A stretch of 49,422 nt of DNA from Rotaria socialis (lineage: Eukaryota), in NCBI GenBank assembly GCA_905331295.1, contig CAJNYD010000242.1, positions 124,001 to 173,422 on the forward strand, written 5' to 3'. The notes below the pieces were generated by a model, which worked only from the letters and a program-made list of their open reading frames with translations, searched no databases and was not told where the DNA came from. Made by a program: the position numbers and the translations under genes. Shown in pieces: positions 19,580-49,352 of this stretch (positions are counted from its first letter, which is position 1; each line of letters begins with the position of its first letter).

Positions 19580-19616
19580 TATATAAAGCGCGAGCAACAG
19601 AGTAGCTATTTCATTT
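19580..19616 (+). promoter_or_regulatory. TATA box plus initiator-like element of peptide precursor gene A
   Basis: TATATAAAG at 19580-19588 and TCATTT at 19611-19616, about 30 nt downstream and ~40 nt before the ATG at 19656. Confidence 0.55.
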
Positions 19617-19655: not shown

Positions 19656-20128
19656 ATGACCATAGTAGGATATTATAGAGATTTTAAAACAGAATAAAAC
19701 ATGATTTCTTTTTGTTAACATTATAGATCAATACTGCTAGGTTTTCTGCATTTTTAAGAATTTGGATAGTGCTCTTCTCATTGGTACTTTGTATCAATAG
19801 TACTCTTGCATCGGAAAATGGCATTTATGATTCCCTACATTTTGATAATGGCGATGATGAATATGGATCTCCTGCAAATCGAGATGCATCATTTTATTCA
19901 AAACGGTTGATTCATGAACATGCTGATTTCAATCGACGTGATATTTGGTCTCGTTTATTTCGCAGTGAAACTAGTCAACCGCACATTGCAAGTCGTTCAT
20001 ATTTTTCGCGAAAATTATATGATCATGCTGCAACAAATGGTCGGATGCATACAATATCAATCGATAAACTTGCAATCCCAATTGAACTGCAGAAGGCTCT
20101 TTACGCTCACGGCATTGTAGGTCGTTGA
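19656..20128 (+). CDS. Secreted peptide (neuropeptide-like) precursor A, 136 aa; exons 19656-19664 and 19727-20128
   Basis: MTI|INTARFSAFLRIWIVLFSLVLCINSTLA signal peptide, acidic spacer, KR/RR/RK sites, and C-terminus AIPIELQKALYAHGIVGR-stop (Gly-Arg amidation signal). Paralog at 31262. Confidence 0.8.
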
Positions 20129-20233
20129 CTTTAAAAATAAGTTTAAATGAAAAATATTGTCAAAACCTTTTTTGTTTTCTTGCGATTAATAAATAACCAT
20201 TAAATGTCGTTCCAAATACAAAAGAAAAAATGG

Positions 20234-20557
20234 GGAAACATTGGATTCGCATCTGATTGTTATGTGTACTGCAAAAACTGAGTCGATTTATATATATTGT
20301 GAACAATTCTGAGAAAAAAAATGTTCTTTGAAAAAAANCCCCCCCCCTCAGGGATGGTCTGGTCAATAATGACAAGTTTTTCGATAACTCAGCCATTTCT
20401 TGACGGATCCTTCTCATCGTCGAACTCGACTGAGATATTGACGGTATCATTTTGTGTACAAAATTTCAAGACAATTGGATAGGGCTTTCAAGAGTTATCG
20501 TGTTAACGGACGGACACACAGATCGAATCTAGAATGTACTCACTTTTTGAGTACACA
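20234..20557 (-). mobile_element. Second copy of the DINE-1/HINE-like element
   Basis: Near-identical to 6124-6466, including the terminal hairpin TGTACTCACTTTTTGAGTACAC and GGACGGAC repeats. Confidence 0.75.
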
Positions 20558-21143
20558 TTAAATGGCATTCCCAGTGCAAAAGAAAAAAGAATTTATAAAA
20601 GAAATCTAGTGCTGTTGGAAGAATTAAAGAAAAGTTAAAATGTTCAATATTCCGCTCCAGTTATTAATAGACTTTTATTATGGTTAATGCTTCTTTTAAA
20701 TTAAAGCGTCAGTTCAATATCAATTAAATGTGAAACAGCTGCGCTGTTGTTAACTACAATGAGCTTATGTTATCTTATATAGTATGAAACTCTCATTTTC
20801 AATTACTTCATATTTCAAAAAGCCAAGAAGGAACAGGCTTAAAGAGCTACTTCTAGATTCTACTGATATCCGATCTTGAATCATATATTACGAGGATCCC
20901 TCATGGCCTGTAAGTCGATCGAAACGTCGACTCTCTTTTACTACACGAATTTCTCTTTGAATCTTGCGTCAAAAAAGAAACGCACCAGCTCTCTTTTCTA
21001 TCACGATGATGAATAATCTCAAACCGATACTGCCCTCTGTCAGCGTCGTCTTCATGACAACTCGTCGATTAAATTTTAATAATGTTTGTTGACAGTAAAT
21101 CTATAAAAAAGATTCTCTCATATTCATATTCTTTCATGTTCTA

Positions 21144-23197
21144 ATGCCTCAAAAGTAAGTAGATTATATAATCTGATTTTTTGATTATATTATAAATTTC
21201 TACTTCAAACTTTATAGACCTAGAGCTCGTCCATTGAGCGCCAGTCGTAAACGACGATATAATAATCGTCGTGCAAGTCTAAATGCTGATTCAAAGCCAT
21301 TCGAAATAGTATCGAATCAATATCCATTATCACCAAAATCCGATATCCTTGTTCCGTCCGGTATAGATCTTCGTACAGCAAAAGAAAAGATAGAAAATCT
21401 AGAAAATGGAATGAAAAAACGCAAAGATGATTCAACAGTATTTTATTTATATTTCTGTTTATTTCAAAGCAAATCTGTTGATTTCTTTTAGTCAGAAGAA
21501 AACCTGAATGATCTCGTTCTTATACAACTCTACACAAGTCTTGAGTACGGTATAATGTCTATTGAAAATGCTGCGGCTTATGTTAGTCTAAGCAAATTCT
21601 ATCTAGATCAAAAACGTAATTTCATATTTAATTGTAACAAAAAACGGAAGAATCTTTTTTTTACTATTCTACAGATTTTCTACCTCAAGCTAAAGAACAT
21701 ATCGACAAAGCTCATCAAATACTTGAAAGATTAAATATAATACCTCATGATGAACATCTAAACAATAATTTGCTTGCGTTTGAAATATATTTTCTATTAA
21801 TCAAATGTTCTGTTCAAGCAAAACAATGTTTATCTCAACGAGATGTGAAAATTAAAAATAGCAAACATATTAAATCAATTGATACAACACATATCGATCA
21901 TGATTTGTCTATACTTGAAGAGTATTTACAAAAATTAGAGCATTTAATGGATTCAAAAAATTATAGTACAAAACATATGGATTATCTATTAATGAAATTT
22001 GAAATAGCTGTTAATAATCTGAAAGAATTTGATCTTCATATAACGAATTTAATTAAAATAATTATTGAGAGTATTGATAGATATTCATCAGATGATAAAA
22101 TAAAGAAGAAAATAAATATTTACTTGCGTGCAGGATTTTACTTTATTAATTTTGATGATAAAATTAAAGAAGGCTTAAATTATTATAAAGAAGCTGTTGA
22201 CTTAGCTGAACAACAAGAACAAGAAAATCCATCCGATATGCATAAACGGCAACTTGCAAATGCAAATTTTCAATGGGCTAAAGCAAAAGTAAAAGTTGAT
22301 AGTTTAGGAGGCAAATGAATATTTTATATTGATTCAAATTTTTATCTGTTGTTTTCTTTTGTTTTAGATAGTACTGGACAAAAATTTAAGCGTGCTATTG
22401 AATTATATAAACAAACCAATGAGGAAAACGATAGAGATATTTTAAAAGTATTCGATGAATTGGCAACTTATTATACAAAAACAGAAAATTTTCAGGTTTG
22501 TAAAACGAATGAATAATATTTTCAGAGAGATTTTTTTTTATCTTTTACAAGAATAAATCATGTTCTATGATGAATAGGATTATATCATATAACCTATTTC
22601 TTTCGAGTTTCATTATGAAAAATAGTTTTAATATTTGCAAGCTGTATGAAAAGATTGTTTATTTTTATTTAATTTTAGGATGCCTTAAATGTACTTTGCG
22701 AAAGTTTACCTGATAAAAAACGATTGTTTGGTGATTTTTCAGACGAAGTTATTCAAACTGAATCACGTATTGGTGCCATTTATTTACGCGAGTGTGAATA
22801 TATAAATGCTGCAGAACATTTAAAAGAAGTATAAAAAATGAGAAGGTTTTCTTCTTTTTTTTAAATCTAATACATTTCTTTTCACAGTGCTTTGATCTAC
22901 AAGAATTTGCGTATGGTCCCAAAGATCCGCGAACATCCCAAACACGTGATGCACTTGAAATCTTAAAAAAGTATTTGATAATCATCATTTTAAGGAAACC
23001 TTTTAAAAAAAAATCGTTTTTTTTTGAATTTTTAAAGGGATCCACAAGTTTCTCGAATGTTTTTCTCTCGTACACAAGATGGCATACGAAAAGATCGACC
23101 AGCATTCAAACTAACAAATAGAGTTTCACATGAAAAAGGAGATCACGAATTATTATTAACTGTTACAAAGAAACCACCGATTTATTCGAAAAATTAA
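21144..23197 (+). CDS. TPR protein, TTC23/TTC23L-like (multi-exon)
   Basis: Spliced model: ...LEYGIMSIENAAAYVSLSKFYL...LPQAKEHIDKAHQIL... and C-terminal CFDLQEFAYGPKDPRTSQTRDALEIL, resembling the TTC23 family pattern. Helical TPR-like repeats. Confidence 0.7.
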
Positions 23198-23330
23198 TTT
23201 TGCCATGTGAATATTTGTTTATTATTAAATAATAAAAGGCTTGTATCTCTACTGTATTGCTACACTTTAAAAATACTTGGGATAAACATAAGATTTTGAA
23301 TAAGCATAAAAATAAGAAAAACCAGAAAAT

Positions 23331-25767
23331 TTAAATACAATAACGTTCTGGTGCCATTTGAATAAAATCGTCAAAGATTTGTGGAACGGTTAGTTGTTTC
23401 AAATTGTCCACAGTCGATTCGGAAATTGGAAAACCCCAAAATTTAAATAATGGAACTAAATTATAACCAACTTGCTTAGAAAATGTAATTATCCAATGAT
23501 CCATTTTTTCTTGATCGGAATGAAGATTCGGTTTAGTTTGTTCGTATTCACGAAAAACATCCTTATAACTTTGCCAACCATATTCTCGTGTTAATTGAGC
23601 ATAAATAAATAAAGCTACACCGGGCTTATTTTTCCATTCATCAAAATTACATCCTTTTTCAATGTATTTTTGTGTACTGGAAATTTGATCTTGCAACCAG
23701 GGATGTATCCATGTTTCAAGATGACAAACTTTATCCATTGCATGTAGAGTAAATATATTTACTGTTACTTCACCAGTACCATCAAATGCTAGAATGAAGA
23801 CAAGGAGTTTTATTCTGGAATCAAAGGAAATAAACAGCAACTTACTCCACCAGCCTTGTTGCATATTATGCCCAAGCTCATGAAATAAACCCCAAGCTCC
23901 TTTTTGTTTTAATTTCTCACAATCCAATAGAAAGCCATCCGAATTCGGATCACTTACATCCATATGTGTAACCACTGGATATCCACTGTCTGAAAATATG
24001 GATTATCATGTTTGTTATTATTCGTTCAAAATTCAATAGAAAAAAATATTGAGTTCTTACGCATGTAACCAAGAGATGGTTGTTCATCACAAACAACACG
24101 TTCTCGACGTGTTGGCTTTGTTCCTCGTAGATCATGATGAGCGAGTATAATTGCGTCCCAGAATTCTAATACTTCATGTAATTCAGTAGATTTTAGATGT
24201 ACAACACTTTTACATGGAAGATTAAATACAATATGTCGACCAGCTATATCAGCCCATAAGCCTTGAGCTCTCGAACGTCTGTATTCCCACAATGCAGCAT
24301 GATTGAGTTCAGTTACATCATAGGTTGGTGCTAATACTACATGATGGAAAGTAACAGTAATCGAACTTGGTTCACCTTCAGGGCTTTGAAAAAATAGTAA
24401 ACCGCCAAACGCTGAATTTATGTTTACAGAATTATTTACTAATGGTTTACGTATGGAAATACAAGGCCATCGACGATATTCATCACAACCCTATTTTTAG
24501 AAGCATGTTTCTTTTATCATTCTATTTCAATATTGACACTTTTCCTATAACATACCCCAAGATCATCACTGTGACATCCAACTCTAGCTGACCATCCTGG
24601 TGCTCCTTTTTGTTCTAAAACATCAATCTGAATTGGAATACCAGCAGCAACATAATATCCTAATTAAAGAGAAAAACATATTTTCATGCTTATTCCATTT
24701 TTTTCAAGCGATCTCTACCTGAACAGTGCCATTCGCTATCTATCGATTTAAAATGACATCGAACACCAGTTAAAATATTAGGGGGTCGATCGAAATCTCC
24801 CGGAAAATGTCGAACTCCTAAATTTCATTATGCAATCTATCAATTCAATAAGTATTTTCGGTTCTACCTGGTGCTTTAATACCCGGTAAAGCGCACATAA
24901 TTCCACAGATACCAGCCGATTGCTCTCGATTTAGTTTGTCTTTGACCGGGCATTGATTCATTGGTATTACTTCTTCACCGGCATTCATCACAATATTTTC
25001 TAAAGTTTCTATGGAAACTCCAGGCAATGTATCCCCTAATTCTTTAATTGCTGATCCAACAATAGAAAGCGTAGTTATATTAGATGGATTATTTGCTAAC
25101 CCTCGAACAGCATGATAAATATTTTTAAATTCAATTAAGCCTTCACGAAATTCTATTGGATTAGGACAATTAGCATAATTATCTGTGATTTTCACTCCGA
25201 TATAATCACAAAAACGTGCAAAAGGAAAATCTGACAGAAGTTTGCCACTTCCTTGTAACCAACCCCATGCTGTCGATCCACAAATCAATGCACCACCCCG
25301 TTCTAAAAATTCGCACTAAGAAAAACGAAAGGCGGCATTGATTTTAAAAATTAAAAAAGTGTATTTACTATATTATTCATAAATGCTTCTGATTTTTCAC
25401 GGTGACCGTTCCAAACAAGAATTTTTCCGTGTGCTGAAATATCGTTCATGCTTGTAGCTTTATCAATCGATAGAAATTCAGCTTGATGACCTCGAGCAAG
25501 CCATCGTCGACAATTTTCAACGAACTGTTGATATTTGCTTTCAGTGTTAAAAAATATTCCTGGGTAACCATTATGAGCAAATACTAAACAGCGACCCAAG
25601 CCAAATCGAGTTGCAACAATAATAACATTATTTGAATCATCGCCACATAATACTGCACGAGTATCGTTTGTTAATGGAATCAGTGTACCTGGACAACCGA
25701 TTTTCTCAATCGAAGATACACCTTCAAACAACAGTTGTGGTGCTTGGTCAAATTCGGTATCGTCCAT
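23331..25767 (-). CDS. TCAF/FAM115-like M60 family zinc metallopeptidase (7 exons)
   Basis: Gluzincin motif WGLFHELGHNMQ...GEVTVNIF, GYMHSGYP, SAFGGLLF, HFPGDF, and a TCAF-like N-terminal domain (IVATRFGLGRCLVFAHNGY; FLERGGALICG). No signal peptide. Confidence 0.88.
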
Positions 25768-26879
25768 ATTGTTTTTCTTGTAAAATCAATATAAAAAAAT
25801 GACTCGGTTTTATATATATATATGTAGATATTGTTTGATTCACTAGCATGAATCATTCATTGCTTTATATCAAGGCAACGACCAAACAAAATACAGTAGG
25901 CCAGGAAAGAAAAAGAATGATTTGAATAAACTAACACCATCTGATGCATCACTAAGTTGTTTTTCTCTTTTAGTTTGCTACAGTGTTAACATTTATATGT
26001 CACTATGTTACGAAAAATGAAGTAACAGATTAATGGAACTTCTGGCGCCCGTTGATGGGCTATTTCTATCATTATTTATTCGTGAAAAAAATTATAAATC
26101 GAGTGTTTGAGCTACCCATTGACTATATTTATCTTGTCGAAAATTTCAATGTTGACGAGCTCATGAATAAACCTTTGACAAGTGTCACAAATATCGAAAT
26201 ACAATAGTAAAGGCTATTCATATTTACCATTTATTCTCTATATTTTAATCGTTATTGGATGATTGAGAAAGACTATTTCTCTTTCAAAATTGCTTATGTT
26301 GTTGAGATTACTTTTCTTTCCAGCATACATTTAATGAGAGTAATCAAATCTACTGAAAAATAAAACATTGAATGAGCCGAGAAACAACACAAACTAAAAG
26401 TCGTAATAGAATTAACGGGCGGATAAAACGAGTAATTACTCGAACAAAATACTCACAAAAAAGCAATGCAATATTACCACCCAAGTTCACGCCTTTACGC
26501 AGCTATTTCTTCTTCGTTTAATATAAATGAACTTGTTCTATTATTCATAGTACAAAGGAACAAAAGAGTTGCATATAGTCAATATCATCTGAAATGCTTT
26601 CAAATTTGCAACTGAATCGTTAAAAACTGTCAATAATACATGAAAATTGGAATGTGACAAAAGAAAATCTATACAAATTGAAGTTATGTATTTGTTTTAT
26701 TCCCTTCGTTCTCAATGGCGCTTTGCGAACGCAAATATTTCTTAAAATCAATAATATCTCTGCTTTTTGAAAATTTAGCAGCATCCTTCGTTTTTGCCAA
26801 GTCACCTTTTTTATCATTAAATCTATTTTTTCATTTTGCAGCTACAATTGAAGAGTAAATTTTGATTTGCTACTATTTG

Positions 26880-27037
26880 CAGTAGTGTCAAACTTGAAAC
26901 TTGAATCCAGTTGAAAATAGAAAATTTCAACTTTCAACTCATAGCGATATATGTGTGAGTCACGATTCTTCAAACTGCTATTGGTTTAAAAGTTGAAAAT
27001 TTTCAATTGAATTCAAGCGTCAAGTTTGACATACGTG
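26880..27037. mobile_element. Small decayed MITE
   Basis: TIR-like TGTCAAACTTGAAACTTGAAT / ATTCAAGCGTCAAGTTTGACA. TACTATTTG occurs on both flanks but is not perfectly adjacent on the right. Confidence 0.55.
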
Positions 27038-27340
27038 TATATTACTATTTGATACGTCAATATCATTCATTGCTTATTCTTCCATTTTAAAAAAGAAAAC
27101 TTGACAAAATATATGACTGATAAGTAACCGAGCAGTTGAATCAATCAGTATGATTATGATATTCCAATGAATCATCGTATAATATGAAAATGAATGACGC
27201 CAGAGAACAAAGATAAAGAATAGTTGAAGGCGTTTATTTTACTTACCTACACTATAAAAATAGACTAAAATGAAACAGAAGATATTTCATTTCGATTTTT
27301 ACATTCAAAACCAAATCTAGCCTAAACACAAATAGATTCA

Positions 27341-27772
27341 ATGCCAACTGGCACATTAGAAGTTATTATTGCCGACGGACGTCATCTTAAAGATCGTGAT
27401 ATTATCGGTAAAAATGATGCTTATGTCGAAGTTTATTTAGACAAAAAATATAAGCAACGTACAACAATTATAAAGAATTCCAATGATCCAATTTGGAATG
27501 AACGATTTTCATTTAATATTCATAAGGGCGATGATACAATTCACTTTGATGTTTATGATGATGATCTAGTTGGTCGAGATTCAGTTGGAAATTGTAAAGT
27601 TAAATTGAAACATGTCTTTGATGGCCGTAAATTCGATGAATGGGTCAAATTACCAGCTAAATTAGGCCTTTCATCTCATGGTGAAATTCACATCATTATG
27701 AATTTTACGGTAAATTAAAGGATTTATTTTTATTTTCAACTAATAACTATCTTCTTTTTATAGCCAGTGTAA
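27341..27772 (+). CDS. Stand-alone C2-domain protein (~125 aa; exons 27341-27709 and 27764-27772)
   Basis: GTLEVIIADGRHLKDRDIIGKNDAYVEV...DPIWNERFSF...FDVYDDDLVGRDSVG, with the Ca2+-binding Asp residues retained. TATAAAA at ~27253. Confidence 0.9.
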
Positions 27773-30700
27773 TTAAAACTCCAACGGCAACACTCAATAT
27801 GACTATTACTCTTCAATTTTGTTTTTGTTTTTTTGTAAATAAAAATATTATTTTTCTAAAGAAATGTGTTAGTGATCAAAAATCATATTGCAATAGTGTT
27901 GTTATCGGTGATAGAAAATCGAGTGAACATGTTTATTGATGTTTCAATATAATGCATCTTGGTATACGTTGATTGAATATTTTATATACTTAGTTATTCC
28001 TTGATAGTGCTTGATTCATGTTGACTTAACAGCTGTGGACATCAGTTTCGCTTTATAGAAAGAATATGATGAAGGCCAAATGCGACAATAAGTTGTTGAT
28101 TTCTAAATTTTACCAAGTAAATATTAGTCAAGACTATTCATATCCTATTTGATATCAATGTATGTTATGTTACTAATAGCATTAGAAAATTAGGATTGGG
28201 GACTAAGTTCCTTTATTGTCTAGTAATCATTGGGGACATCTTACACGTAGAGACTGTAACTACTATCTAATCTATTTTTAATTGATTACATTACACATCT
28301 TTACCAAAAACTTTTTCATGATAGTTATAATAAATTTTTTCAACATACGATAGATCGCTTATTTATTTATTTATAGCGATAGACATCGTTTCGTTGACAT
28401 GTCAGCGTCATTCTAATAAAATAATATTTTGCTCATTGTCTTTCGGCTTCTTCTAAATACAATTGAAAGTAAATATTGAAGTATAGAAGAAAGAATTCAA
28501 CTTTGCTCCTTCGTAGGCTGCAAGTCTATCAGATCCCATTATAGCACATGATCTACTTTCGTATTAAATTGCGGGATATACTTCGTAAAATGATAACGAG
28601 AAAAGCTATTCTTAACTGAATTAGAGTAAAACAAAGCGTCGTTTTGCAAATGTTAATCCTGGAAAGATTGACTCCAGAGATAATTTTAATGCGTTCGCTA
28701 TTTCTTTGTCTCTGTTTTCATTAGATTGGATAGACTTATTGACCGTTTGTAATAGATTATTTTAGTTGCTTGAGTTAACTATAGAACTATACTTGGCATT
28801 CATTCATCAATAATAATAAAAAATATTGATTGAACTAAAAAACTTGCATTAATGATGTTGTTTAAAACTATATCTATTCAAAGGAATATTCGATTTGGAA
28901 CATTTTTTTACTTATAAAACAATACGAAGAATTACGTATCGAACAGATTGTTTATATGTTATCAACATAAATGAATAACGTAACAAATTTTAAATCTTTA
29001 TAATGCCGGCTTAGATGATTGTCGTTTCTATGGTAATCGAATGTGCTAATGTAGATACTATTATCAAAGCGGCATTGTAGAATAATGATTTAAGTTATCT
29101 GGATAAAATTTAATACGTGATGAAATGATGAACTTGATATTTCTGTTGGTTATAATTGGTTTCTTAAATCAACATATTATATATATATATATATGTAGAG
29201 AGAGAGAATAATCTAGCTATATGATCATTGATACAATGTGAAGGTCGAGAATAAATGAAGTACAATAGCACAAGACGAAGAACAAGGCTCGTGAAGACAC
29301 AAAATAGACCCGAAAGAAAGAATATTCATTATATTCCACAGCAGTATAAATCTTGAATATGCACAGTATCAACTTCTATTCATGTTTGTTTTTCGTGTGA
29401 AGGTCATAAAATTTTCTCTATGAAGTTATTTCCCAATGTAGTATTAACAAATTTTTATCTACGTATCTCGTTTGCAATCACAAATCTAAATGTGTTTCAT
29501 CGGAAATGGCGAGGGTGTTCATCTCTGAAGTAAATATCAGACATAAATAATTAGGGCTCAATGCAGCCAATGTGCGCTGCTGTATTGCTAAAAGAATAGA
29601 CGAGATGGAAGTTATAGATATGCTCAGTGGAGTGATAGATTTTGCTTTTATTCACGATCATATAAAGTTCATGTAGCGCCGAGAATTACTAGGATCCCAA
29701 GCGATTCACAGATGCTATATTTAATCAGTTGTTCAATATCAACATGGACGCCTACCGGTAGACTTATTATTACTTGTAATGTGAACATGCTTACAAGACT
29801 GATACAAATGGAAGTCAGGCGGCCTATAAATATTTTACATAAAAGAGAGTATTAAATAAGTTCTACATGATTACTGGCTATCTATAAATCATTGAAAATA
29901 GGAGTATTTTATTTATGATAGAATGTAGAAGAAGCACTTTACTAGAAATTTAGCATTAGTGAAAAATCTGTCTACTGACTTAGATAATCGCGTGGAGAAG
30001 AATTTTAGAAGTTTTCTGTCAAATTTTCTTACGTATTTGTCATTTGGAGAGTCTTAATCAATTGTAATGAAAATTAATGAATAGAATTTTATTTAACATG
30101 GTAATAACAGGATGTATTCTTACAGAAAAAAGAAGCTTACATATATCATACAACTATTAAAATAGAATTACGTATATATGTATGATTACCTATTAGATGT
30201 AGTGACTACTTAGAAATAGTACTTTTTTGCCTATCGGGATATTAACATAGAAAAATTAATTTTCTTAATTTCGTCTAGCTATTCAAACTATACGCGTCAG
30301 ATGTCCGCGAGGGATCGCAGTACGTATACAAAGAAAATAATTATTTTAATTTCTGTTAATTTTAATAGGTTTTCATGCAAAAACTTCAGATTTATCAATG
30401 TTTTTCATTTTCATTGTCTATGATAAGGATATCTTAAATACTTCGTATTGTTTTGTTTTAGAGCGCACAGCCACAGTATAAATACTTTCCGTGAGTAAAT
30501 GTTACATGCATAAGACATTTATCTAAATGCAATAGAAAAAGAAGTTAGCATGGAAGTAAAATAAAGAAAGTATACAGAGTTATCTTATAAAACGAAATAT
30601 TCAATTGAATTGATAAGTAGAAGTCAATTTATCGATTGTACCATATGAGATTTATCATGAAATATTAGGTAAATTGATTTATTTTTCTGTATAATTTAGA

Positions 30701-31261
30701 TGTAACGTATTGAAAAATAAGGTCACGATGAAAATTCTTCCTTAGTCCAACAAGTAGACGACCGAATGCCAGGTGTTAAATGTGAAGCTAATTAATTAAT
30801 TAATTTGATATTTTTTTTTCATTTTAAAATCTAATAGAATATTTCTACTACTAATACGAATGCATGCGTAGGAAGATGAAAAGGAAGCGAGAGCTATTTC
30901 TGTTACCTTGTATTTTATAAGTATTTACTTGTCGAACTTTTTCTTTATATTAACTCATTTTCTAATATCTGCGTTCACGTTAGAAGAAAAAAGTGTATAA
31001 AACAACGATAGCCAGTTTTTACGATAGGTATCTTGTCATCTCTCTTTTACTATTAAAATGACTATTTTTAGCAAAACTCAGTTGATAATATTCATTTTAT
31101 TGCGATAAAAAATGTTGCGTGAGAAAACGAGTAATAATTGACTTTACATATTACTACTCCTTCATTTCATAGATGTGCCAACAAACGATAGAATTCTGTT
31201 TATATGAAATATATTTTTAGACTCATTGATCATTCTTCTTATCATTCTCAAGTCTATTATA

Positions 31262-31754
31262 ATGATTCAGGTAGTAATATTCGAATGTTAACTTGCATAA
31301 TTAAAAAAAATAGAATTTCGTTTCATTTCAGTTAGCTTCTTATTCGCATTCAAATTATAATTTTTTAACTCTTGTTCTTTTCACTCTTGTTTTTATCAAT
31401 ATAAGTCGAAGTTCAGTCTATGGTATTATTAGTGAATATGATTATGAGCAGCCATCATCAATCGGCGATGATTTATCTTATGAAAATATTGGAAATAGTG
31501 AATCACCCATTCCAATGAATCCAAATAGCTTTTATACACCTATTGACGAGGAAACAAAATCAAGAAATCCTTGGTCCGAATTATATCATCGTCATCATGC
31601 TCGATCAATAGTCACATCATCACACTATGCATTAACGCTGCCTGGTTATGTTATACGACCAGATCAAACTAGTTATGTTCCATATCCTGCTAAAAAACGC
31701 ACGATTCCAATTGAACTTCAAAAGGCCTTTTTCGCTCATGGTATTGTAGGTTGA
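31262..31754 (+). CDS. Secreted peptide (neuropeptide-like) precursor B, 143 aa; exons 31262-31270 and 31332-31754
   Basis: MIQ|LASYSHSNYNFLTLVLFTLVFINISRS signal peptide, acidic spacer, and C-terminus KKR-TIPIELQKAFFAHGIV-G-stop (basic cleavage site plus amide-donor Gly). Confidence 0.82.
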
Positions 31755-32532
31755 TGACGTTAGATACGAATTTTTCAAGTACAGAAAAAAAGTGAATGTT
31801 TGAATTTCATTTTTTGATTTATTAAGAATAAATAAATAAATATTCTATACCTCTAAAATGAACAAATGATTTTCAAAGAATTGTTTTTCATTCCTGTTGA
31901 TTATCATATTTATACGGAATTTTCGGCAAGCCAATCGCACAATACTACCGAGTCTTTTGAAAAATTGTCACCATTGAATATATTGAGTGCACATCTTTAC
32001 TAGCGATGTTCCGAAGTACCCTGTACCTCAATTGAAATGTCATGCGGGAAAAAATATGATGATTAATATTGCGTGTTTGTGATTCTAATTATATGTCAGC
32101 ATAGTGTTCATTAGTATTTTTTATAATATGAGATGAGGCAAAAAACCGAAATTTAAAACGCTTGATTTAAAATTGGCTTAGTAACTCAGAAACATGACAT
32201 ATATTTCATGTTGACGTAAACAGTGAACTAGAGTTTTACACCCATATGCTAGAAAGTCTTGTTCATTTTACCTCGACGTGACATCTGCATGACGCGAGTC
32301 TAGATGACAAAATCATGCAGCAATACGGAAAAAGAGGAATCATCTTTTTCCAACACACAACTAAGAAAGATGTCAAAATTTTAAAATGATTTATTCGATC
32401 AATTTTGATACTGTTCATGTTTTAATATGAGGTGTGAACTTATCTCAGTTTTCGGCTCATTATTGCTGCTGTGAGAAATTCATGCTCGTGAATTGGATAT
32501 TAAAAAAGAATAGAAGTTACCTATGAATTATA

Positions 32533-34879: not shown

Positions 34880-37114
34880 ATGTTGCTCTATTCTATTGTA
34901 GTACGTACCTCTACGAGATCGATGAAGTCGATAAGTCCTAAACAGTCTTCACCGAAAAACTCTAATCGTAGCCGACGAGTTTCAATTGTTGCTTCTCTCT
35001 TGGAAAAATCAATACTTCAGAACTTCCTGCTGATCTGGCTCGATCCACATATTGATAAATCTCAAAATCAATATAAAAAACCATTAGCAGAATTACAACG
35101 TCTTGTTGCCTCGATTAATACGTTTACTACAATCGATGACTGTATCGATTTTATTGATGGAATTCAAGAAACTAAAGTGTTTATGATTGTTTCCGGATCT
35201 CTTGGGCAAAGCATCGTACCACAAATTCACGATAAGACACACGTAGATTCAATTTATGTCTACTGTAGAGACGCTGAGCTTCACAAAAAATGGTCATTAT
35301 CATGGTCTAAAGTTAAGGACGTGTATACGAAAACTGAACCGATTATTGACGCACTAGAAATAGATTTAAAACGATGTGATCAAGATTTTATTGCAATAAG
35401 TGTTAATGGCATCGATCCATCGTTCATGTATAGTCAGTTACTCAAAGAAGCTCTCTTGGAAACACAAGACGAGGATGAAAATCACAAAACTATCCAAGAA
35501 TTCGTTGAATATTGTCGCCTTCAAGATGGTTTAGATGAATCGCAAATTTCGAAACTCGAACAATCATACAATCGTTATTCACCTATTTATTGGTACACCG
35601 CTCCATATTTTCTCTATTCAACGCTCAATCGTGCACTACGCGTACTTGACGTAGATATTATGCTCAAGATGGGCTTCTTTATACGTCATCTACATCACAA
35701 TATTCAACAACGCTTTAATTGTATGAACTTAAAGTCATCTCAATTTACTGTTTACCGAGGACAAGGCTTATCGAAAACTGATTTTGAAAAAATAAAAAAG
35801 GCAAAAAATGGACTGATGTCATTTAATTCCTTTCTATCAACTACTACTGAAGAAAAGGTCGCTGATAAGTTCAGTCGCGCAGCTTTCAAAAATGCTGAAA
35901 ATGTTGGCATACTCTTTGTCATGACTATTACTCCATCTCTCTGCAATTCGACTCCTTTCACATGCATCAACGACGTCAGCTTTTACAGAGATAAAGAAAA
36001 AGAAATTCTTTTCTCTACACATACTATATTTCGCATCGGTCAAATCGAATCAATGAATCATGATAATAATCGACACTGGCGAATCCATCTCACCCTAACC
36101 AATGATAGTGACAATGATCTAAAGGATCTTACAGATCTCAAACGGAAAGAACTTGCTAGAATAAGAGGAAAGTCACGATTAGGGCAATTACTGATTTTAC
36201 TTGATCAACCACTAAAAGCCAAGAAATTCTACGAAATATTACTGCAAGAAGCACAGAGTAATGCCGATAAAGCATATTACAACCATCAGCTCGGAGGCGT
36301 GCATTACAAGATGGGTGAATGCTTGCAAGCAATCCAGCATTACGAAGCAGCATTGAAAATCAATGAAAACAGAAACCCAATAAATCATAAATATGTAGCA
36401 CAAGATTATCAAGGTATTGGGGCGGCTTACCATCGAATGCAAAATTTCCAACAAGCACTTTCGTATTATAATAAAGCTCTTGATATAAAAAAAAAATCGC
36501 TAAAGCCAGACCACCCAGATTTGATCAGTAACTATAACAGTACCGCCTTTCTGTTTGTTGCGATGCGACAATACGAGAAAGCATTAATACTTTTCAAGAA
36601 AGCGTTAGAGATCAGTGAAAATAAGTTGCCAAAATTGGATCCACGGTTGGCTCATTCCTATCATAACATGGGTTTAATCTACGGGCAAATGGGTAATCAA
36701 GCTGAGGCACTGTCATATATGAGAAAAGCATATAAAAAGTTCAAAAAAACATTACCTTCGAATCATACAAGTTTAGCTGATTTGTACAACACCATGGGTT
36801 GCTTATACCACAAGATGTCGAATTACAAAAAAGCACTTTTATATTTCAATAGATCATTGCCCATTTACCAAGTAACATCACCTACGGATAATATATCTGT
36901 GGCTGACTGTTACGCTAATATTGGTATGGTATATTTCGATATGAACGATTTTAGTACTGCATCTCAGTATTATGAAAAAGCACTCAATATCTACCAGATA
37001 AAACTTCCGTCTTCACATTATGATCAATTAGAAATTCAACGGAAACTAGAATTATGTAGAAAATATATGCAGGACCAAACTCCTCATAATAATCGCAAAA
37101 CGCCGCCAATTTAA
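34880..37114 (+). CDS. Arginine-type ADP-ribosyltransferase domain plus TPR-repeat protein (single 744-aa ORF)
   Basis: R-S-E ART motifs TVYRGQ, NSFLSTT and KEKEILF. About seven TPR repeats, most with 42-aa spacing. N-terminal alpha/beta domain starting FLLIWLD. The true start may be 34922 or an upstream exon. Confidence 0.88.
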   Translation: MLLYSIVVRTSTRSMKSISPKQSSPKNSNRSRRVSIVASLLEKSILQNFLLIWLDPHIDKSQNQYKKPLAELQRLVASINTFTTIDDCIDFIDGIQETKVFMIVSGSLGQSIVPQIHDKTHVDSIYVYCRDAELHKKWSLSWSKVKDVYTKTEPIIDALEIDLKRCDQDFIAISVNGIDPSFMYSQLLKEALLETQDEDENHKTIQEFVEYCRLQDGLDESQISKLEQSYNRYSPIYWYTAPYFLYSTLNRALRVLDVDIMLKMGFFIRHLHHNIQQRFNCMNLKSSQFTVYRGQGLSKTDFEKIKKAKNGLMSFNSFLSTTTEEKVADKFSRAAFKNAENVGILFVMTITPSLCNSTPFTCINDVSFYRDKEKEILFSTHTIFRIGQIESMNHDNNRHWRIHLTLTNDSDNDLKDLTDLKRKELARIRGKSRLGQLLILLDQPLKAKKFYEILLQEAQSNADKAYYNHQLGGVHYKMGECLQAIQHYEAALKINENRNPINHKYVAQDYQGIGAAYHRMQNFQQALSYYNKALDIKKKSLKPDHPDLISNYNSTAFLFVAMRQYEKALILFKKALEISENKLPKLDPRLAHSYHNMGLIYGQMGNQAEALSYMRKAYKKFKKTLPSNHTSLADLYNTMGCLYHKMSNYKKALLYFNRSLPIYQVTSPTDNISVADCYANIGMVYFDMNDFSTASQYYEKALNIYQIKLPSSHYDQLEIQRKLELCRKYMQDQTPHNNRKTPPI

Positions 37115-47501: not shown

Positions 47502-48439
47502 AACCCAAACCAGTCATCATGACATGTATACGTATGTGTTGCTAAAGAAAAGAGAAAACAAATGTTGTCGGATTGTAAATCTCACATATAGATATTGTGT
47601 CAATATTGTAATATTATTATTGATTAAAAGAGTTCGACTTGTTTATTCGATATTCAAAAGCTTATATATTTGAAAAAGCAAAGATTTAAATATAGAATCA
47701 ATTAGTTTATTAAAGTCGCTCAAATAAATGAGTTGAAGCACTTGAGAATTTGAACATTTCTATGAATTATTCAAGATTATATAAAATTTGTTCAACAAGG
47801 TACATTTTATCTAATAAATAGAGACCACCATCGATTGATACATTTGCTAAAAAGAACAATGATTTTATAGACAAAATGAGAATGACGAGACGATTTTTAT
47901 CTTTTCTCAACTTGTTTTGTTTTTCGTCGCTTAATGTTCATCGGCGAACTTCACGATTGATGAGATATTGGGAAAAAATAATGAAGATGACTTGAAAAAA
48001 TACTTTTTTTTAGCATGGAATAGTAAAAACATGAAAGTTCCAATGAATGTTGACTGAATATCTATGAAAATTCCGATGATGATCTACAACATGTGAATAA
48101 TTGATACAATAGATGTGTCATGATAAGAACAATTATCCTACACGCTCGTTTCAGTTCATTCACTTATGCGAAAGTTCATAAAGAACTTTGCAGAGTTAAT
48201 GAATGATTAGAGAAAAACGTATCTATTTGATGATTATACTTTTGGATATGTCTCAAAATAGAATATAATTCAGCCGTTGTATTTTCTTCATCGTATGTTC
48301 AATATGTCAAGAATAAATTATAGAGGATATACTGAATTATCTATCTATATAGCCAGGTGTAATCGTGCATTTAGAGAGCTACAGTGAGTAACTTGTTTGG
48401 TAAGACGAGTACAGGTGTGTGTGTGTGTAACTTTGAACA

Positions 48440-49352
48440 ATGTCATCTATGCTGGATTACAATTTCATCTACAATCGTGTCACAGCAATTATCATACCAA
48501 TTCAAATTGTACTTGGAATTTTAACAAATATATTTTATATTCTTGTCCTCTTACGGCGATCCTTATTACAGACTTCACCTTGCACCTACTATTTTCTTAC
48601 AGAATCCGTGATCTCGCTTATTTCTGTAATAATCGAACCAGGACGTCAATTTGCTGAAAATGATTTCATCTTCAGACCCTATACTACACTAGTCGGCTGT
48701 ACGTTAGTATCTTATCTTCTCACACTGACGTCATTCTATATAAATATTCGTTTCATGCTTGCTACTTTTGATCGTTTTTGCAAATCATCAACACTAGTTT
48801 ATATTCGCAATTGGAATTCAATCGTTGTGGCTCGGCGAGCTATCATCATTATGGCATTCGTACTTCCTATTATACTCAGTTCAACGCTGATCGTTTGACA
48901 TATCAACCATGATTATGGTTATTTTTGGTCTACTCACAATTCTAAATGTTCACGCTGAAAGAAATCGAATAATCCCTGGACTTGGTAATGGGAATCAACA
49001 GCGCCGTACAGAAATTCAACTAGCACGAATGTTATTGTGGCAAGTATTTAATTATCTTATCTTTTTTCTACTCATTGGTGTCACATATACATTGGTTGTG
49101 GTTAATTCTTCAATGCAAACGACTTTTCTAGACTTTATAATCAACGTATGCTCTGTGTGACTTCAGTTTTTCTTCGTTACACCCTTCTTCTTGTATATTC
49201 TAACAGTAAGTCTATATAGGCGTGAATTGAAAAATATTTTGTCGTATCAATATATTTCGAAGAAATCAAACGCTTTTGAACACAGTTACTATGGCTCCTG
49301 TTGGCAGAGATCGTACAACTATTCAATAATAATTTTTCCTGGTTCAGATTAA
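48440..49352 (+). pseudogene. Class A (rhodopsin-like) GPCR pseudogene
   Basis: TM1 LGILTN, SPCTYYF, TM3 C...LATFDRFC, IMVIFGLLT, QLARMLLWQV, TM7 PFFLYILT..LYRREL. Stop at 48896-48898, a frameshift with apparent loss of ECL2 and part of TM5, and a second stop at 49158-49160. Confidence 0.8.

Follow-up and report, generated by a model that had tools for sequence, protein, structure and literature searches.

The two small genes studied here, gene 1 and gene 2, lie in a 49,422-nt window of the Rotaria socialis genome (GenBank assembly GCA_905331295.1, contig CAJNYD010000242.1, positions 124,001 to 173,422 of the forward strand). We found that they belong to a four-gene bdelloid family (classes A to D, with gene 1 in class A and gene 2 in class B) that most probably encodes prohormones of amidated signalling peptides, with one 16-residue peptide in each precursor. 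We give this reading a probability of about 0.85, and the peptides would be ligands of a G-protein-coupled receptor (GPCR). A preliminary description of the same DNA had proposed a pair of paralogous prohormone genes. Its prohormone interpretation is now backed by the precursor architecture, purifying selection on the peptide, transcript evidence and the four-gene bdelloid family; the two genes are indeed related, but two further family members and an origin by tetraploidy had been overlooked.

Each gene comprises a 3-codon coding micro-exon and a longer second exon separated by a GT-AG phase-0 intron of 62 nt in gene 1 and 61 nt in gene 2 (Table 1), exactly where the preliminary description had placed them. 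The spliced products of 136 and 143 amino acids (aa), P0030 and P0001 respectively, are identical letter for letter to NCBI Rotaria socialis models listed as “unnamed protein product”. Both precursors have a single hydrophobic stretch, which is N-terminal, the best later window reaching a KD11 of 1.19 in gene 1 and 0.97 in gene 2. Towards the C-terminus, the 16-mers of the two genes share 13 of 16 residues and differ synonymously at 6 of the 14 conserved codons (Gly included), and our recount agreed with both earlier figures. The spacers had been said to barely align, which proved incorrect, as BLASTP aligned them with 33% identity over 134 columns (E 3e−11), and a W-S-x-L-[FY] motif is common to both. 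This Trp motif is kept in classes A and B and missing from class C; in class A it is preceded by Arg-Arg, and a second peptide may start there. The basic cleavage site described earlier is present in gene 2 (KKR) but not in gene 1, which has Lys-Leu (AAA CTT).

The homology searches that had been proposed as a check did find relatives (29/38 and 14/16 in candidate searches). A profile search of 1.84 billion representative proteins gave 42 matches at E up to 0.001, all with the same peptide, and a C-terminal profile search covered the best 120 of 160 matches among 7,994 candidates. Every named match seen was bdelloid, namely Rotaria socialis, R. magnacalcarata, R. sordida, Rotaria sp. Silwood1 and Silwood2, Adineta vaga, A. 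ricciae, A. steineri and Didymodactylos carnosus, and many unnamed environmental matches also bear the peptide. No non-bdelloid relative appeared among the 1.84 billion proteins at E up to 0.001 or among the best 120 of 160 matches; such a relative could sit at weaker scores or beyond the best 120. At an E cut-off of 1, Pfam returned 0 families, and no Pigment_DH, for the two genes and for a pair of orthologues, which together with the profile searches agrees with the earlier statement that no named family matches.

The peptide pattern was present in 139 of 141 stored relatives, the two misses being one truncated protein and one with Thr in place of Glu. Gly directly followed the peptide in 139/139, so that the pattern is far beyond chance, and a dibasic site (KR or RR) preceded it in 133/139, as it does in gene 2 but not in gene 1. 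His13 and Gly14 were invariant across the 139, and the modal peptide was TIPIELQKALYAHGIV, with a predicted amide [M+H]+ of 1765.04. Across the 16 peptide codons of 22 genes, pN was 0.078 and pS 0.50, confirming the purifying selection claimed from the two genes alone, while mean column identity over whole precursors was 32%. Nearly all relatives end at G, GR or GR(n) without any domain after the peptide. AlphaFold run on the alignment gave no globular fold (pTM 0.26), with a signal helix, a peptide helix at residues 130–138 and two low-confidence spacer helices. Overall, the family is real, strongly conserved and apparently unnamed, a bdelloid group of probable prohormones of a known kind.

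Under the proposed mechanism, whose steps are those of established prohormone biology, the signal peptide would route the precursor for secretion, and a prohormone convertase would cut it after Lys-Arg; carboxypeptidase E would trim the basic tail and PAM would convert the Gly into an amide. Trimming would be unneeded in gene 2 because it ends in Gly-stop. The mature peptide is modelled with an extended N-terminus, a short helix over I-E-L-Q-K-A-x-x-A and the invariant His-Gly close to the amide. Near-invariance across genera and across the four old paralogues points to a receptor ligand. Neighbours of P0001 in the ESM Atlas were mostly prohormones (DH31, NPFF, 26RFa, CCK, PDH and PBAN) at 0.86–0.90.

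The four classes were resolved in a tree of 55 precursors, consisting of 24 named ones and the unnamed ones of 95–160 aa among the first 75 stored. Support was 93/88 for class A, 97/70 for class B, 99/96 for class C and 96/94 for class D, and the split of A and C from B, D and Didymodactylos received 100/98. All four classes occur in A. ricciae and in Rotaria sp. Silwood2. Genes of classes A and C sit between a leucine-rich-repeat (LRR) transmembrane gene and orf21177, while those of classes B and D lie after a C2 gene, class D being followed by Ariadne just as gene 2 is in the window. On contig L025, the C and D genes are 6.75 kb apart, and their neighbours follow the order seen around A and B in the window. 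In A. vaga (genes I4U23_008266, I4U23_025238 and I4U23_025242), a 16.93-Mb sequence carries C and D at a distance of four locus tags, and A lies on another sequence of 16.27 Mb. The available text of PMC8494291 describes A. vaga as a palaeotetraploid with three homoeologous chromosome pairs. From gene order and the tree, which agree, we infer that bdelloid tetraploidisation doubled an old cluster of two genes (site 1 and site 2) into A/C and B/D; on this comparison, the window pair (A and B) is half of a four-gene family.

The surroundings of both genes form a conserved bdelloid gene block (window 5433–40681; L004, L008, L012, L020, L021, L023 and L025), which exists in two homoeologous-looking versions. 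Its order is WD40, HSCB, TRAPPC11-like (a label given by reading only), LRR-transmembrane and peptide gene, followed by orf21177, M60 peptidase, C2 protein, the other peptide gene and Ariadne-like.

At the transcript level, contigs of run X1, taken as RNA by guess, span gene 2 from 31330, two bases 5′ of exon 2, up to position 31866. They finish there in 13 loose A residues, read as the poly(A) end, downstream of three AATAAA signals. Coverage in runs X2–X4 is shallow, is confined to portions of gene 2 exon 2 and gives no information on splicing. The micro-exon junction, which the preliminary description had singled out for confirmation, is spliced in an orthologue: class B contig L007 is a 100% match to L008 and L010 minus exactly the 68-nt intron after ATG-GTT-CAA that L008–L011 carry, and a cDNA origin is the simplest reading of the missing intron. 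The match of L007 to L008–L011 ends past base 579, and the contig may be chimeric over 580–1928. Among 28 peptide copies at 27 related loci, a 3-codon first exon with a 47–68-nt phase-0 intron fits 19, and one further copy has a 2-codon first exon. The exceptions are L007, L024 and L027 (both near contig starts), L023 (no model found), three class D copies whose long open reading frame (ORF) contains an in-frame Met, and the class D copy of L025.

Several observations weigh against the amidated-prohormone reading or parts of it. The 141 stored proteins include alleles and close kin, so that counts over them are not independent. Support for the class A clade is only 93/88, and the tree root is provisional. 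The gene 2 splice junction is in no listed run X1 contig, and the RNA-level evidence covers gene 2 and an orthologue, not gene 1. The ESM Atlas matches are weak, with at most 153 shared features against a guide value of 170, and a peptide-only query, which placed a bacterial domain of unknown function on top, was uninformative. Our best guess for the receptor, class B1 (parathyroid hormone (PTH)/pigment-dispersing factor (PDF)/calcitonin-type), draws only on a weak motif resemblance and the precursor layout.

As to ancestry, the best lead found was the one hinted at earlier, the iPTH/PXXXamide/QSGamide family, the defining features of which are missing here. The rotifer peptide would then be a truncated bdelloid orthologue that lost the Ser-Asp-Gln-Arg block of the N-terminus, kept little of the linker and dropped the Asp-Pro-x-x-x end, and it would signal through a PTH-receptor-like class B1 GPCR. 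We regard this as possible but not probable; it is compatible with the prohormone reading and differs from it only in ancestry. In the available parts of PMC7224569 (Table S1) and the PMC8557429 supplement, spiralian iPTHs contain E-L-Q-A-L and then [AG]-H-G-x-hydrophobic, this second block reading AHGMV in Lingula, GHGQV in Sepia, AHGQL in Crassostrea and AHGIF in one Limulus gene. The rotifer peptide has both blocks in the same order (E-L-Q-K-A-L, then A-H-G-I-V), and both kinds of precursor share a layout of signal peptide, KR and one amidated peptide, the signal peptide and the amidation being predicted in the rotifers. An E-[LIM]-[QEK] block, defined by reading those published sequences that were available, was found in 119 of 158 stored peptides, [AG]-[HYF]-G-x-hydrophobic in 157 and both in order in 118. 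A random 16-mer would carry both blocks at about 4–7e−6, shuffles of the modal peptide did so in 291 of 2,000,000, and the residues common with iPTH rank with the most strongly conserved positions of the rotifer family.

However, the two-block motif was written after the resemblance was seen, and a two-block sum statistic gave P 0.03–0.07 per family and an E of about 2–6, with hand-scored blocks and 80 families assumed. The available text of PMC7224569 calls the N-terminal Ser-Asp of iPTH “highly conserved” and the Pro at −4 “mildly conserved”, whereas S-D-x-R and Pro at −4 each occurred in 0/158 rotifer peptides and Asp-Pro-x-x-x-amide is missing. According to the same text, iPTH precursors extend C-terminally past the amide site, an extension that nearly all rotifer precursors lack. 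The iPTH peptide has about 25–40 residues against 16 in rotifers, the pro-region is short in iPTH against 60–100 residues in rotifers, and, judging from the available transcript variants, exon borders flank the iPTH peptide, whereas the rotifer peptide lies within one exon. In view of the missing defining features and of a match that falls short of statistical significance, we did not file the family as iPTH. For the lophotrochozoan peptides, function and receptor are described as still unproven in the available parts of PMC8398477 and PMC8557429 (section 15), and our literature search on rotifer PTH receptors returned no relevant paper. A true truncated iPTH would represent a minimal active core of an ancient system and offer a testable ligand–receptor pair. 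A bolder and more doubtful version would make the family the missing gnathiferan PTH-type class B1 ligand, a 16-residue two-block core in four ohnologous copies, of which one Rotaria lineage re-lengthened one copy to 60 residues via a single G-to-T change at the cleavage site.

That cleavage site sets gene 1 apart. The codons before the peptide are AAA CTT (Lys-Leu) in gene 1 against AAA CG[TAC] (Lys-Arg) in 20/20 other copies at the fetched loci. Lys-Leu was present in 3/3 R. socialis and 4/4 R. magnacalcarata variants seen, while Silwood1 and Silwood2 retain KR. A basic residue followed by a Trp motif of the gene 1 type occurs in 35/141 relatives, as RRGVWSRLFR in 17 of these, and a cut at Arg73-Arg74 of gene 1 would yield a 60-residue amide (residues 75–134). 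Given its Lys-Leu, gene 1 likely either releases this N-extended amide or is under relaxed constraint, the alternatives being cleavage at a single basic residue or slow decay. We think it unlikely that gene 1 is decaying after loss of the cleavage site and gives no active peptide, with gene 2 bearing the function. Besides the Lys-Arg to Lys-Leu change itself, such decay would fit the 16-mers of R. socialis and R. magnacalcarata, which differ at two positions in gene 1 and none in gene 2, and the six changes of the R. socialis class C peptide from the modal form, which suggest that the family is loosening in this species. On the other side, the frame of gene 1 is intact in 7/7 variants seen in two species, and gene 1 keeps 15 of the 16 residues of its peptide and the Gly-Arg behind it, as well as the Arg-Arg and the Trp motif further upstream. 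A third KR-less protein, the unnamed P0049 (Lys-Ser), clusters with the Lys-Leu proteins (90/76) and keeps the peptide, which suggests that the KR-less state has persisted. The R. socialis class C precursor (P0052/P0077, outside the window) has kept its Arg-Arg site, and its peptide, unlike those of the R. sordida and Silwood orthologues, is strongly diverged.

It is still less probable that the peptide is a divergent PDF/cerebrin, allatotropin or DH31, possibly already so named in the figures of the NP-HMMer rotifer survey, which in its available part reports a rotifer PDF (sequence not seen). In the published material available, PDF/cerebrin resembles the rotifer family in having one 16–18-residue peptide at the precursor end, after KR, with a Val or Ile amide and then Gly and a polybasic tail; brachiopod PDF/cerebrin and DH31 precursors likewise have a single C-terminal peptide followed by G-R-R-R. 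DH31, of the cysteine-less calcitonin family, was also the best ESM Atlas neighbour (0.90), with PDH listed too, and the available phoronid allatotropins end in [SG]-H-G-[YN]-amide, a small residue-His-Gly near the amide being common to allatotropin/orexin and the rotifer peptide. The specific signatures, however, were not found: in the 158 peptides L-x-x-L-P or N-L-P, D-x-G-[FYL], Pro-amide, H-G-[FY]-amide and N-terminal G-F-[RK] each scored 0, and an N-terminal Asn occurred once. Unlike PDF/cerebrin, the rotifer peptides lack an N-L-P-D-L core; unlike DH31, which has 31–32 residues, they have 16 and neither D-x-G-[FY] nor Pro-amide; and unlike allatotropin/orexin, they end in H-G-I-V rather than H-G-[FY], without a G-F-[RK] start or an allatotropin-type C-terminal domain after the peptide.

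Several database matches were set aside. When 24 C-terminal segments were compared with Pfam at an E cut-off of 10, the only match, Sulfakinin (E 0.2) in one segment, was rejected. The PDB matches, to a sulfatase at E 0.59 and to a helix of a staphylococcal complement inhibitor at E 0.04–1.3, covered internal stretches without the Gly-amide layout and were taken as chance. The ESM Atlas DH31 match, with 153 features against the guide of 170, was read as layout similarity only.

A secreted non-signalling peptide (an antimicrobial, a cuticle or glue component, or an external pheromone), which the high run X1 contig depth of about 600–2200 could fit as bulk secretion (depth poorly measures expression), is highly improbable in view of the near-invariance across genera and across the four ancient paralogues, which characterises receptor ligands rather than antimicrobial peptides, the low net charge, the weak hydrophobic moment (0.05–0.20) and the single peptide copy per precursor.

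The literature held no description of the family within the scope searched. Full-text motif searches, with subscription journals outside their scope, found only unrelated papers, and searches on rotifer, Brachionus, Adineta and gnathiferan neuropeptides gave no title describing it. HGIVG and ELQKA had 0 occurrences in the PMC8557429 supplement. In the available PMC6425005 supplements, one file of which covered only entries before the rotifers, four HGIVG and six ELQKA places belonged to unrelated proteins, and the available parts of PMC3890597 and a tick iPTH preprint added nothing on the family. R. socialis was among the species scanned by NP-HMMer (10.1101/2024.07.20.604414), the available text of which reports 20 rotifer families including PDF and which may already list the present family under a known name, and gnathiferan neuropeptides are called a “next frontier” in the available part of PMC8557429.

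Gnathiferan neuropeptides are barely charted, and the family described here provides a concrete, near-invariant candidate ligand, apparently bdelloid-wide, that can be synthesised and tried on behaviour, reproduction, desiccation entry and orphan rotifer GPCRs. That all four ohnologous copies were retained suggests that dosage or sub-functions matter. Amidated peptides restricted to one phylum are common, so the family on its own would be of interest to specialists rather than a surprise.

Table 1 Positions of gene 1, gene 2 and their sequence features within the window
Feature	Position	Strand	Remark
TATA-like box TATATAA, 5′ of gene 1	19580..19586	+	76 nt before ATG; function putative
Gene 1 (class A) coding micro-exon, Met-Thr-Ile	19656..19664	+	N-terminus same in P0030
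Gene 1 phase-0 intron, 62 nt, GTAGGA...TTATAG	19665..19726	+	predicted from DNA
Gene 1 exon 2, encoding a putative signal peptide, an acidic spacer, the 16-mer and Gly-Arg, then stop	19727..20128	+	
Gene 1 signal-peptide hydrophobic core, residues 16–26	19763..19795	+	KD11 2.95; putative signal function
Gene 1 internal Arg-Arg and conserved Trp motif RR-DIWSRLFR	19934..19963	+	likely start of 60-residue extended product
Gene 1 lost dibasic site, AAA CTT (Lys-Leu) instead of Lys-Arg	20066..20071	+	
Gene 1 conserved 16-mer AIPIELQKALYAHGIV, predicted amide [M+H]+ 1735.03	20072..20119	+	
Gene 1 Gly-Arg: amide donor and basic tail	20120..20125	+	predicted amidation
Gene 1 AATAAA poly(A) signal (candidate)	20188..20193	+	from sequence
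Gene 2 (class B) coding micro-exon, Met-Ile-Gln	31262..31270	+	P0001; same junction spliced in L007
Gene 2 phase-0 intron, 61 nt	31271..31331	+	run X1 contigs start at 31330
Gene 2 exon 2, encoding a putative signal peptide, an acidic spacer, KKR, the 16-mer and Gly, then stop	31332..31754	+	
Gene 2 signal-peptide hydrophobic core, residues 15–25	31365..31397	+	KD11 2.94; AlphaFold helix 8–35; putative signal function
Gene 2 conserved Trp motif NPWSELYH	31566..31589	+	
Gene 2 Lys-Lys-Arg, predicted convertase site	31692..31700	+	
Gene 2 conserved 16-mer TIPIELQKAFFAHGIV	31701..31748	+	predicted amide [M+H]+ 1783.03; helix residues 130–138
Gene 2 Gly then stop: predicted amide donor without basic tail	31749..31754	+	
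Three overlapping AATAAA signals and poly(A) addition site at 31866	31827..31866	+	13-A loose end, run X1

Some existing annotations merge these genes with their surroundings. NCBI models P0142 and P0152 join gene 2 with sequence upstream of it or with the C2 gene, and P0163 joins class A with class B; such fusions would obscure the family and are likely errors of annotation.

Between the two peptide genes, 21177–23121 (+) holds a multi-exon gene without a Pfam match in its longest ORF. This gene is conserved at 44–62% and, in 9 loci as well as in L008, comes immediately after the class A or C gene. It is followed at 23331–25785 (−) by a multi-exon peptidase M60 (enhancin-like) gene, possibly of bacterial origin, a second partial copy of which is present in L008–L011. 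Between gene 2 and Ariadne, at 34880–37114 (+), a single ORF encodes a 744-aa protein with tetratricopeptide repeats and a weak, below-cut-off ADP-ribosyltransferase match (PF03496, E 1e−4). This gene looks like a later insertion, because L012, L019, L024 and L025 lack it at the corresponding place and a relative adjoins a class A gene in L015. Finally, ORFs at 48437–49160 (+), the first of them without a Pfam match, resemble a fragment of a seven-transmembrane receptor.

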